A stretch of 64,000 nucleotides of DNA from Octopus vulgaris (taxonomy: Eukaryota): positions 86,118,001-86,182,000 of the forward strand of contig OX597825.1 in assembly GCA_951406725.2 (NCBI GenBank), read 5' to 3'. The notes beneath the pieces are model-generated. The model was not told the origin of the DNA. It ran no database searches and was given only the letters and a program-made list of their open reading frames with translations. Of the stretch, positions 51,501-54,578 are shown one piece after another. Every line of letters starts with the position of its first letter. Positions within the stretch are counted from its first letter, which is position 1. Made by a program: the position numbers and the translations under genes.

Positions 51501-52904
51501 AGCCGGCTCTTTTACTTTGGAGAAAGATACACAAGTTCATAGTTTCTCTGTTGTGAATTTCATACCTCATAGACATGTCTGAAACCATTATTCTTTATTT
51601 TATGTCTCTTGTCTTAATCAGTTTCAAGTTAATTAATGCACATGATATTCCCAGTTGCTTATTGGGAATGCTTGCTTGTATTCAGTTTTAACACAGTTTT
51701 TCAGTACTTAGAATGTATAATCTTTTACTTCAAAGGAGATGGCATGGAACAGGTGTTGACCTTGTAACTAATGGAAAAACTGAACTGGTGCTGGTGCCAC
51801 ATAACAAGCACCCAGTATTCTCCATAAAGTCACTGGCATCAGGAAGGGCATTTAGCTGTAGAAATCATGCCAAGACAGACAGTGGAACCCAGTGCAAATC
51901 CAAGCCTTACCAGTTCCTGTAACACCATCCAACCCATGTCGTCATGGAAAACAAATGTTATACTATAATGATGATGATGATTGTTTCAGAAAGTAGAAGT
52001 TAGACTATTCTTCTCTCTATTTCCAGTCAAGACAAGCAAATGTTACATGGACACAACATCAATTTTTAATTCCTCTTACATCATTAATGTTCCCAACTGT
52101 ATGGTTCTGGGTTCAGTTCCACTGCATGGCACCTTGGGCAAGTGTCTTCTACTATAGCCTCAGACCAACCTAAGCCTTGTGAGTGGATTTGGTAGAAGGA
52201 AATATATATCATCATCATCATCGTTTAACATCTGCTTTCCTTGCTAGCATGGATTGGAAGATTTGACTGAAGACTGGCGAACCAGATGGCTGCACCAGGC
52301 TCCAATCTTGATCTGGCAGAGTTTCTACAGCTAAATGCCCTTCCTAACACACACACACACGCACCCATATGTTTGTGTGTCTGTGCTTCCCCTCCACCCT
52401 CGCTAGGCAACCAATGTTTGTGTGTTTATGTCCCCATAACTTAGTGGTTTGGCAAAGAGATCAATAGAATAAGAATCTGCTTACAAAGTGCATATCCTGG
52501 GCTTGATTTGTTCAGCTAAAGGCGGTGCTCCAGCATGGCTGCAGTCAAATGACTGAAACAAATAAAAGAATAAAATGAATATTAAACCTCCCCAACACTC
52601 GAGGTAGAGAAAGGAACTGGTTTCAAATCCTACTTCTGCTCTTTGTGCAGATATTCTTTTTCTTTCTTTTTTTGTTTTGTTCCTTTTATTCTCGAGCCCT
52701 GTGACTCATAAGGCTGGTTACCCGATTTCCATGGCATATAAGTAACTGGGATCACAACATTCCCCTGAACAGGCGATACCAGTCTCTTCTAGGGTTCAAG
52801 ACCAGCAATTTTGATGGAAGGGGACAAGTTGATTACATCAACCCCACTACTTGACTGTTCCCTTATTTTATCAACCCCAAATGGATGAAAGGCAAAGTTG
52901 ACCT

Positions 52905-53312
52905 CATTTACATTATTTATGTTTGACAGATATTTGTCATCATCTTGTTTGTTGTTAACACGTTTTGGCTGATATACCTTCCAGCCTTCTTCGGGTGTCT
53001 CGTGAAAATTTCGACTACACCATATGCCCATGGGCCCACGGGCATATGGCGTAGTGGTTAAGAGCACGGGCTACTAACCCCAAGATTCTGAGTTTGATTC
53101 CAAGTGGTGACCTGAATAATAACAATAATAATAATAATAATGATAATGTCGAAAAATACCTTAGGAATGAGAACCCAGGTTCGAAATTTCCCCAAGACAC
53201 CTGATGAAGGCTAAAGGGTATATCAGCCGAAACGTGTTAACAACAAACAAGATGAGGACAAATATCCGTCAGATGTAAATAATGTACATAATTTCTCATC
53301 TCTTAGATATAG
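52905..53312 (+). mobile_element. tRNA-headed element with Penelope/hammerhead-type tail and inverted 5' duplication
   Basis: 11-bp TSD aaagttgacct at 52894-52904 and 53313-53323. A/B-box tRNA head at 53040-53112, (AAT)n, then CTGATGA...GAAA at 53201-53232. Confidence 0.75.
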
Positions 53313-54578
53313 AAAGTTGACCTTGGTGGGAATTGAATTGAAAAGGTAAAAGAGCTGCAAGAAATGCTGCTTAACATTTGGTCCAATGGTGCTAATGGCT
53401 CTGCTGGTTTGCTGCCTTTTTTGTGCAAACATTAGGTCTTCATAATTAATTGGGATTATTTAATCAGGTATGAAAACTTAAAATGGGAACATTGGTGAAG
53501 TTGAAACATTTAAAATAAGAAATCCCAAAGTAAACCTCAGGATCACTGAGAATATTCTGTAGCAAGTTGGCACTGGTCACAGAGTTTTGGTAAAATATCT
53601 TCTCGATGAATCTATGAAGCAGTTTTGGTTCCTGGTTATAGCATTTTCACTTCTCATTTCACTGATGTGGCTACAATTCTTGAGAACAACACAGAAGTCA
53701 GACAAACTCATTAACTCTAAAACCTGACACTTTGAAGGTAAAGAATAATTATTTTTGAAGAGAAACCAGTTCTTTGGTGAAAGATGGGTAACAACTGTAA
53801 AGCTGACACTTCTTTACGAATCTGTTATCATCCAAGCACATGTCTGTACCAATGCTCTCATCTCTCTTGCACACCAAATCTGATTTACAATATCATCTTC
53901 AGTACCCCCGGGTCTCTTTCTCTTTCCTTCTCTCTCAATCATTCTCTCACACATATCTTACTTCTTATTAAGGAGTTTGAATATCTGACTGGCCATCGTG
54001 CCAGTGGCATGTAAAAAGCACCCACTACACAGTTGGAGTAGTTGGCATTAGGAAGGGCATCCAGCTGTAGAAACTCTGTCAGATCAGATTGGAGCCTGGT
54101 GCAGCCTTCAGTCAAACCGTCCAACCCATGCCAGCATGGAAAGCGGACGTTAAACGATGATGATGATCTGTGTACATTGCATGTCCTTTCATGGCGGTTC
54201 TTTCATTAAAGAATTGATTTTGTTACCATAATGGTGAATGGAATAACAGGAAGACAGGAGCAATGGCCCTAAATATATTCCAGTAATTAAGTTTTTACCA
54301 AAATTTCTGAGCTCAGATCCATTTGTCTCTTCTTGGTTGAGTCAGGTCAACTATATTCATCAAACCTACAAAAAAAAAAAATACTGTCTGTGCCATTGTA
54401 GACTTTACTGAAATTATTTGTGGTTTTTTAACCCTAGGTTATCTCTGACTGAGCAGACCTACCTATAGTCAAAGCCATTCCGACCATCATCATTCCAACT
54501 TTTTTCGCAGACGCAGTGTATCTACAACTACATTATTGAATGTGTTCTTTTTTTTTTTTTTAAACAATACGGTATAAG

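Follow-up and report, generated by a model that had tools for sequence, protein, structure and literature searches.

Organisation of the insertion at 52894-53323

The 64,000-nt stretch of Octopus vulgaris DNA analysed here (hereafter the window, whose own numbering is used for all positions) carries on its forward strand an 11-bp repeat, AAAGTTGACCT, whose left copy (52894-52904) lies within an older abundant SINE and whose right copy occupies positions 53313-53323. The sequences on either side align, overlapping by 11 nt, with two unsplit copies of the host SINE (43475-43392 and 19634-19498), and this identifies the repeat as a true TSD, as the sequence-only reading of this region had claimed. 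The target SINE (52761-52904 and 53313-53420) is old and very abundant, with about 15 matches in the window and 70-90% identity among copies. The other parts listed in that reading, namely an inverted tail, a palindrome, A and B boxes, an AAT tract, a hammerhead-like tail and a second copy of the tail, are likewise present in the sequence.

Between the TSDs, the insertion begins on the reverse strand with an inverted pLTR arm (52906-53014) that spans ORF positions +15 to +123, stops at the short 3′ end and has a mutated hammerhead core. This arm pairs in inverted orientation with 53181-53289 (109 nt, 86%). It is followed by an inverted head fragment, also on the reverse strand (53014-53034), which runs from +16 back to about -5 and forms a loopless palindrome (53014-53055, 90%). 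The forward arm then opens with a GCCCAC leader (53034-53039), whose G53034, judging by the positions at which arms of the family end, would be where Pol III starts, 6 nt upstream of +1 of the tRNA-like head. Next come a 75-nt tRNA-like head (53040-53114), closest to tRNA-Arg by tRNA alignment, with an A box TGGCGTAGTGG at 53047-53057 and a B box GTTTGATTCC at 53092-53101 (family majority, GTTCGATTCC), and an (AAT)n tract of copy-variable length within the 5′ UTR (53115-53147). Finally, the start of a Penelope ORF (53167-53312, codons 1-49, with a premature stop) ends at the long 3′ end and includes a minimal type-I hammerhead (53196-53238) in which stem II is weakened and 3 nt are missing at the cleavage site. 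ARAGORN called no tRNA in the 64-kb window and Rfam at E≤10 matched neither a tRNA nor a hammerhead at the element. The Rfam miRNA matches corresponded to microsatellites and were set aside.

The tail seen at 1-155, on the forward strand, is 89% identical to that of 52894-53323 and represents the short-ended arm of a second insertion of the same Penelope family. This insertion (L195:1444-3155) is also two-armed, with the head and an inverted long arm lying ∼1.3-1.55 kb to the left of the window. Its AAT tract is interrupted by ∼1.3 kb of unrelated sequence, part of which is a LINE 3′ end that we take to be R4/Dong-like. At other loci (L013, L021 and L024), R4/Dong-like 3′ ends followed by (AAT)n often abut the Penelope AAT tract upstream of the tail, as if this tract were a target for an R4/Dong-like LINE.

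The head and the tail are parts of an autonomous Penelope

Searches covered a genome of 2.8 Gb in 227 contigs. In longer copies the tail passes unbroken into the N-terminus of an ORF, and what had been described as a tail corresponds to the first ∼150 nt of an 834-codon Penelope ORF that encodes an RT followed by a putative GIY-YIG-type domain, its ATG being located at 53167. The unit reads ATG, 834 codons, TAA, ∼29 nt, the 75-nt head, (AAT)n, ∼19 nt and ATG again, where the 834-codon ORF is that of the majority sequence and contains one unresolved base at an A-run. When loci were selected on the head, the tail was found downstream of it in 28 of the 29 other loci, and the upstream sequence shared by five of them translated as the end of a GIY-YIG-type domain. 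When loci were picked on the end of the ORF, a head match lay directly downstream in 29 out of 30 and the tail in 27. Furthermore, pLTR, ORF, head and tail were found joined within single loci (L184-L187). Since the head lies ∼29 nt past the ORF stop and the tail is the ORF start, head, (AAT)n and tail together constitute the pLTR of the family, which includes the ORF start and occurs in partial tandems and as an inverted 5′ copy, as in EN+ Penelope-like elements (PLEs).

RVT_1 matched two real copies (E values of 3e-7 and 7e-7) and the ORF contains YGLPKIHK, PLRPIV, SLDV.SLF, MGSP.S and YVDD, which we take to be PLE-type RT motifs. The ORFs of relatives are similar in length (∼800-850 aa). 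Identities of 51-68% were seen with relatives P0001-P0004. At the C-terminus we found the pattern VYSIPC..Y.GET..EH..E..W..R; the Pfam GIY-YIG model matches none of the segments of the family itself, and it matches a relative (L319, E = 6.5e-5) whose alignment to this segment covers residues 2-320 (36%). Placement within Penelope/Poseidon is presumed from motifs and domain order, the related RT matches carrying no clade names. When distant PLE proteins served as queries, most of the matches were again to the octopus family.

From these results we conclude, with near certainty, that 52894-53323 is a solo, two-armed pLTR of an autonomous Penelope. The proposed connection of the tail with a Penelope, probably of the GIY-YIG type, is borne out, as is the linkage of head and tail; the idea of a SINE with a Penelope tail fails, given that the head directly follows the end of the Penelope ORF. 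The head belongs to the autonomous element itself, and a separate SINE is very improbable.

The family is abundant and its short copies are not a separate lineage

A 25-mer from the tail gave 4,270 exact genome matches and the reversed control gave none, indicating that the tail is not a chance sequence. The 25-mer was present in 22 of 188 arms from loci that had not been selected on the tail, which gives a rough figure of 36,000 arms genome-wide; candidate counts from a first look (2957, 2251, 2182, 1749, 420 and 219) were not taken as copy numbers. Arms chosen by pattern showed a mean identity of 93% to the majority, and no intact ORF was found in the near-full copies checked (14 loci). The family looks old and inactive.

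We compared 71 short arms with 111 ORF-linked arms and the majority base was the same at every most-differing position listed, which argues against the short copies being a separate SINE lineage. A SINE2 is a non-autonomous lineage that shares only a 3′ tail with its partner and has a tRNA-derived head with A and B boxes. Such a head is present, though below Rfam and ARAGORN thresholds, and both head and tail lie in the autonomous unit. As for non-LTR retrozymes, which consist of head-to-tail tandem hammerhead units, the sampled loci are mostly solo or head-to-head. Tandem copies, which the earlier reading had proposed to look for, do exist and are rare: two head-to-tail arrays (L030 and C2:2734832-about 2736107) are made of tail units of ∼190-215 bp, all of which include a hammerhead region, and have a retrozyme-like appearance.

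Paired arms combine one short and one long 3′ end

The position-ordered sample used for the analysis of copy ends was drawn from one chromosome, starting with the first 96 places listed for the 25-mer. After close pairs had been merged and one locus already in use had been omitted, 90 loci were left; three overlapping loci were then dropped, giving 87 loci with 149 arms, including 55 head-to-head pairs. The two 3′ ends of a pair were one short and one long in 50 of the 55, both short in the other five and both long in none. In majority numbering the short end lies at about +129 and the long end at about +157, ∼30 nt apart, and either of the two arms can be the long-reaching one. TSDs of 11-13 bp, the mode, were found in 19 of the 55 pairs; only this mode was used because a screen at ≥7 nt has a null rate of 19%. 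Paired arms had 54 derived changes in common compared to 15 in random pairs (maximum of 29 in 500 shuffles), suggesting that in many cases the two arms had one source or underwent later conversion.

An inverted arm, a TSD of 11 bp and an extension of ∼30 nt on one side only are textbook Penelope anatomy. In published descriptions of Penelopes, the pLTR takes in the ORF start, the 5′ pLTR is inverted, one arm has a tail of 31 bp, palindromes occur at the junction and TSDs measure 8-10 bp (passages in PMC3846280 and PMC8557442). In the in vitro experiments with the anole element PAc that PMC11167929 describes, both strands were nicked and extended and reverse transcription started at two internal sites that define the tail. 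By analogy, there may be one priming event per target strand in the octopus family. Pure fold-back of a single cDNA, considered as a general origin of the inverted arm, was rejected on the grounds that a 3-nt deletion (see below) differs between the arms in 20 of the 28 pairs that carry it.

In three loci (L163, L165 and L170) the ORF end lies upstream of the 5′ pLTR, and hence their templates, whether tandem, circular or jumped, must have started before a head; circles have been proposed in a passage of PMC4209133. Several further rearrangements were observed. At L028:1165-1300 and L159, ORF N-terminal sequence directly abuts the head start, a joint resembling the product of a template jump that led from the 5′ end of the RNA into the interior of the ORF. 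L166/L171 contain three tandem duplications of ∼326 bp of the ORF N-terminal region. Four pairs of loci (L151/L152, L100/L101, L118/L119 and L132/L133) are 97-100% identical over the copy or its flanks, which suggests segmental duplication.

The ORF start contains a minimal hammerhead motif

The predicted hammerhead occupies ORF codons ∼10-25. Its core is complete in the family majority, which contains both core boxes, an extra A before G10.1-C11.1, a palindromic ACGU and GUU at the cleavage site, and thereby every minimal type-I trait in the list given by PMC4209133. All 10 scored core bases were kept in 79 out of 121 arms. The copy at 52894-53323 is probably inactive, as the sequence-only reading had anticipated: its forward arm has a damaged stem II and has lost the 3 nt that hold the NUH triplet, and its inverted arm contains core substitutions.

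Of 121 arms in the position-ordered sample, 11 carry this in-frame deletion at the cleavage site (53233-53238). Considering that it differs between the arms of pairs, as mentioned above, and is linked to no other variant, it must arise repeatedly. The deletion could be the scar of an RT that jumped across cleaved RNA by means of a 2-nt GT overlap, an origin about which we are hesitant; slippage in GTTGTGTT would produce it too. In the anole, Frangieh et al. report finding no RNA reads that end at the hammerhead cleavage site (passage in PMC11167929).

The 5′ ends of copies cluster at the start of the tRNA-like head

The head was compared with 30 tRNA loci of this genome belonging to isotypes Arg, Ala, Thr, Cys, Lys and Glu. 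The best matches were tRNA-Arg(TCT), with 51 identities out of 75 (z = 7.8), and tRNA-Arg(TCG), with 49 out of 75 (z = 7.5); the remaining tRNAs also exceeded shuffles (z = 2-7). The head is collinear with one full tRNA length, keeps both A and B boxes intact and is located at the promoter position of the pLTR. In 30 related loci, some of which lie on contigs that end early, the 400 nt following the ORF contained no pair of A and B boxes. Elsewhere in the genome, locus L291 has seven tRNA calls (six Cys and one Ser) in 3 kb.

Forty-eight of the 149 arms reach the head start. Of these, 31 end between about -9 and +4, two end at -13 and -25 and 15 run on, extending 166-1599 nt into the ORF end. 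Among the 33 arms whose end lies near the head, 32 retain no more than 7 native bases upstream of it, several of them with short fold-back letters, and many arms that end at the head start have a partner without a palindrome. In the insertion at 52894-53323, the centre of the palindrome at 53034 coincides with this cluster of 5′ ends, both arms joining at G53034 (-6). The distribution of ends suggests that the RNA 5′ end probably lies at the head start and, on the same evidence, Pol III is likely to start ∼6 nt before the head. Three RNA-seq runs and one contig set mapped on one ORF-bearing locus (L184) gave no start pile-up at the head and equal depth in both mate directions that tracked the copy-number gradient, a result that is uninformative on Pol III for an old and dispersed family. 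The Pol III component of the sequence-only reading survives as a likely promoter, predicted from sequence, and it belongs to the Penelope itself and not to a SINE.

The sense strand contains no T4 or TTVTT terminator

A long RNA made by Pol III would be expected to come from a sense strand that avoids T runs. The 2,632-nt sense majority contains no run of T4 or longer, compared to 2.9 expected from synonymous shuffles (P = 0.026) and 4.4 from base shuffles (P = 0.012). When TTVTT, the most degenerate Pol III terminator type among those whose testing PMC3141230 describes, was included in the score, an addition made after five patterns had been tried, the count was again 0 compared to 5.7 expected, and zero was reached in 3 of 3000 synonymous shuffles. 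Thirty real copies contained 22 T4+ runs versus 109 expected.

As controls we used stop-free ORFs of at least 1.2 kb, available in 30 of 80 related metagenome loci. These 30 PLE ORFs contained 202 T4+ runs versus 138 expected, and one of them (L346, 1.4 kb) had none. T4+ runs also occurred in all seven RT families of this genome, one of which has a weak GIY-YIG match. With TTVTT included, and with L468 (an ORF under 400 aa) left out of the host re-scoring, at least one motif was present in each of 36 control ORFs (the 30 relatives and six host RT ORFs), the longest free stretch being 1,046 nt; in this comparison the family is represented by its majority sequence and the controls by single copies, several of which are not independent (e.g. 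L329-L332, L355/L356). Among the host loci, L486-L500 comprise two other RT families with open frames of up to 1119 aa, a YIDD motif and T-rich sense strands; they are probably younger Penelope-like elements, with a weak GIY-YIG match in L488.

One TCTTT at ORF position +231 and three T3VT remain on the sense strand. The TCTTT is the only weak terminator of the TVT3 type and lies ∼85 nt beyond the long 3′ end; this motif gave ∼50% termination by human Pol III in vitro (according to a passage in PMC3141230), and it could release a short SINE-like RNA. The family has a T content of 22%, its Phe and Tyr codons favour C endings and G4+ runs are equally absent (P = 0.04 with base shuffles and 0.29 with synonymous shuffles), so general U-avoidance contributes to the loss of T runs. 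With these figures in mind, we give the possibility that the coding RNA is also a Pol III product an even chance.

Comparison with known systems

The octopus family resembles anole PAc and Adineta Pen2a in having a single ∼835-aa ORF with an RT and then, in the octopus, a putative C-terminal GIY-YIG-type domain, a pLTR that contains the ORF start with a hammerhead in it, an inverted 5′ pLTR, an optional one-arm tail of ∼30 nt, a junction palindrome and a TSD of ∼10 bp (passages in PMC11167929 and PMC3846280). It differs from them in that those sources describe a TATA/Inr-like or Pol II internal promoter where the octopus element has a tRNA-derived A/B-box segment, and in that its sense strand lacks T4 and TTVTT terminators. 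Schistosoma Sm-alpha/Sj-alpha also combine a tRNA-related Pol III element with a hammerhead, but they are described as non-coding and often tandem, with canonical hammerheads (passages in PMC2770079 and PMC6765202), whereas here these are parts of an autonomous RT-coding element. A Pol III promoter derived from a small RNA is found in the terminal repeats of the TRIMp3 elements Cassandra, Helenus and Ajax; according to passages of PMC10886601, TRIMp3 elements are LTR elements that reach 1.3 kb at most and are non-autonomous, their autonomous partners being expected to use Pol II, whereas in the octopus it is the autonomous element that has the repeat. Animal non-LTR retrozymes, proposed to be PLE derivatives (passages in 10.64898/2026.07.22.740005), and the non-autonomous PLE MRC1 (passages in PMC8557442) are likewise short Penelope derivatives bearing hammerheads or pLTRs; retrozymes form tandem arrays, unlike the octopus copies, which are mostly solo or head-to-head and constitute no separate lineage.

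We found no tRNA-headed autonomous Penelope and no Pol III-transcribed self-mobilising retrotransposon with a tRNA-derived promoter in the open-access articles searched. A precedent for an autonomous retrotransposon translated from RNA that is not made by Pol II is R2, which lacks its own promoter and depends on being co-transcribed with rDNA by Pol I. R2 carries an HDV-like ribozyme (passage in PMC6765202). Main-text passages of the O. vulgaris annotation paper give counts of Penelope and SINE elements and mention no such chimera (PMC13282606). The architecture is that of an ordinary Penelope; the new and surprising part is the likely tRNA-derived promoter in an autonomous, terminator-free Penelope.

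Discussion

The reading that we favour, and consider fairly probable as a whole, is that 52894-53323 is a solo two-armed pLTR whose tRNA-derived A/B-box segment is a likely Pol III promoter setting the 5′ end ∼6 nt upstream. According to this model, Pol III would start ∼6 nt before the head in the pLTR, and the Penelope protein would nick both target strands and prime at two internal sites of the ORF start, one per strand. Priming in the first pLTR of the RNA would reach the 5′ end after ∼300 nt and leave a SINE-like solo pLTR; priming in the downstream pLTR of a long RNA would yield ORF-bearing copies. The long coding RNA may also come from Pol III, as the absence of terminators suggests. Several points stand against this model: the small GCCC-AC-GGGC palindrome at the head start could favour truncation without being a start; the TCTTT at +231, the three T3VT, the absence of G4+ and the U-avoidance weaken the terminator argument; and L163, L165 and L170 require templates that begin before a head. 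Moreover, Pol III RNA is uncapped. A passage in PMC10886601 attributes a size limit of ∼1.3 kb for such elements to the processivity of Pol III.

An account that comes nearest to the sequence-only reading, and that is partly nested in the model above, differing from it on the long RNA alone, would confine Pol III to the short pLTR RNA, which would be copied in trans as SINEs are, and have the coding RNA arise by Pol II read-through. It dispenses with the translation of an uncapped RNA, agrees with the prevalence of short copies, only 15 of 149 arms entering the ORF end, and gives a role to the TCTTT just past the two RT start sites, which perhaps ends the short RNA. SINE-like elements with Pol III and a hammerhead are described in Schistosoma (passages in PMC6765202 and PMC2770079). 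However, it leaves the absence of T4 and TTVTT in the remaining ∼2.3 kb of the ORF unexplained, and we regard it as possible but unlikely. In another scenario the element would be a Pol II or read-through Penelope in which a captured tRNA or SINE head goes unused, the palindrome or the fold of the head stops the RT or aids joining and the loss of T runs reflects base bias. Known pLTRs carry Pol II-type promoters and 5′ palindromes of 18-38 bp (passages in PMC3846280 and PMC8557442), multimeric templates exist, and the 22% T, the C-ending codons and the missing G4 runs point in the same direction. Against this, arms stop just upstream of the structured head and not inside it, at the offset of a type-2 promoter, and they do so also where the partner arm lacks a palindrome; besides, synonymous shuffles that keep the codon bias still expect 5.7 motifs and the 36 control ORFs, several of them with 20-22% T, all have at least one. 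We judge this scenario improbable. As to an independent tRNA SINE lineage with a borrowed Penelope tail, or chance nesting, the short copies do resemble SINEs of the head-(AAT)n-tail type, and their head is closer to the majority (92.5%) than that of ORF-linked copies (87.7%), a difference biased by the different selection of the two samples. The position of the head after the ORF stop, the presence of this tail and no other downstream of it in 28 of 29 loci and the identical majority bases of short and ORF-linked arms at the positions listed largely refute this idea, which we consider very improbable.

In its complete form, the model that we favour describes an autonomous retrotransposon transcribed end to end by Pol III from a captured tRNA gene, with a 2.5-kb ORF purged of terminators, the same promoter yielding the SINE-like solo pLTRs and the 3-nt deletion being the scar of an RT jump; for and against, we find this form evenly balanced.

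The need for translation underlies the assumption that autonomous retrotransposons depend on Pol II, or on co-transcription by Pol I, and a Pol III promoter is the mark of their non-coding parasites. A Penelope on a tRNA promoter would, if true, break this division between Pol II-autonomous and Pol III-parasitic elements and unite the roles of LINE and SINE in one element. SINE-like copies would then derive directly from an autonomous element, with no SINE lineage of their own, and a Pol III RNA of 2.5 kb would have to be translated independently of a cap. Tens of thousands of copies of the family would be mis-annotated as tRNA SINEs. In addition, the family offers a large natural test of the Penelope mechanism, in which the combination of one short and one long end fits priming on both strands at two internal sites.
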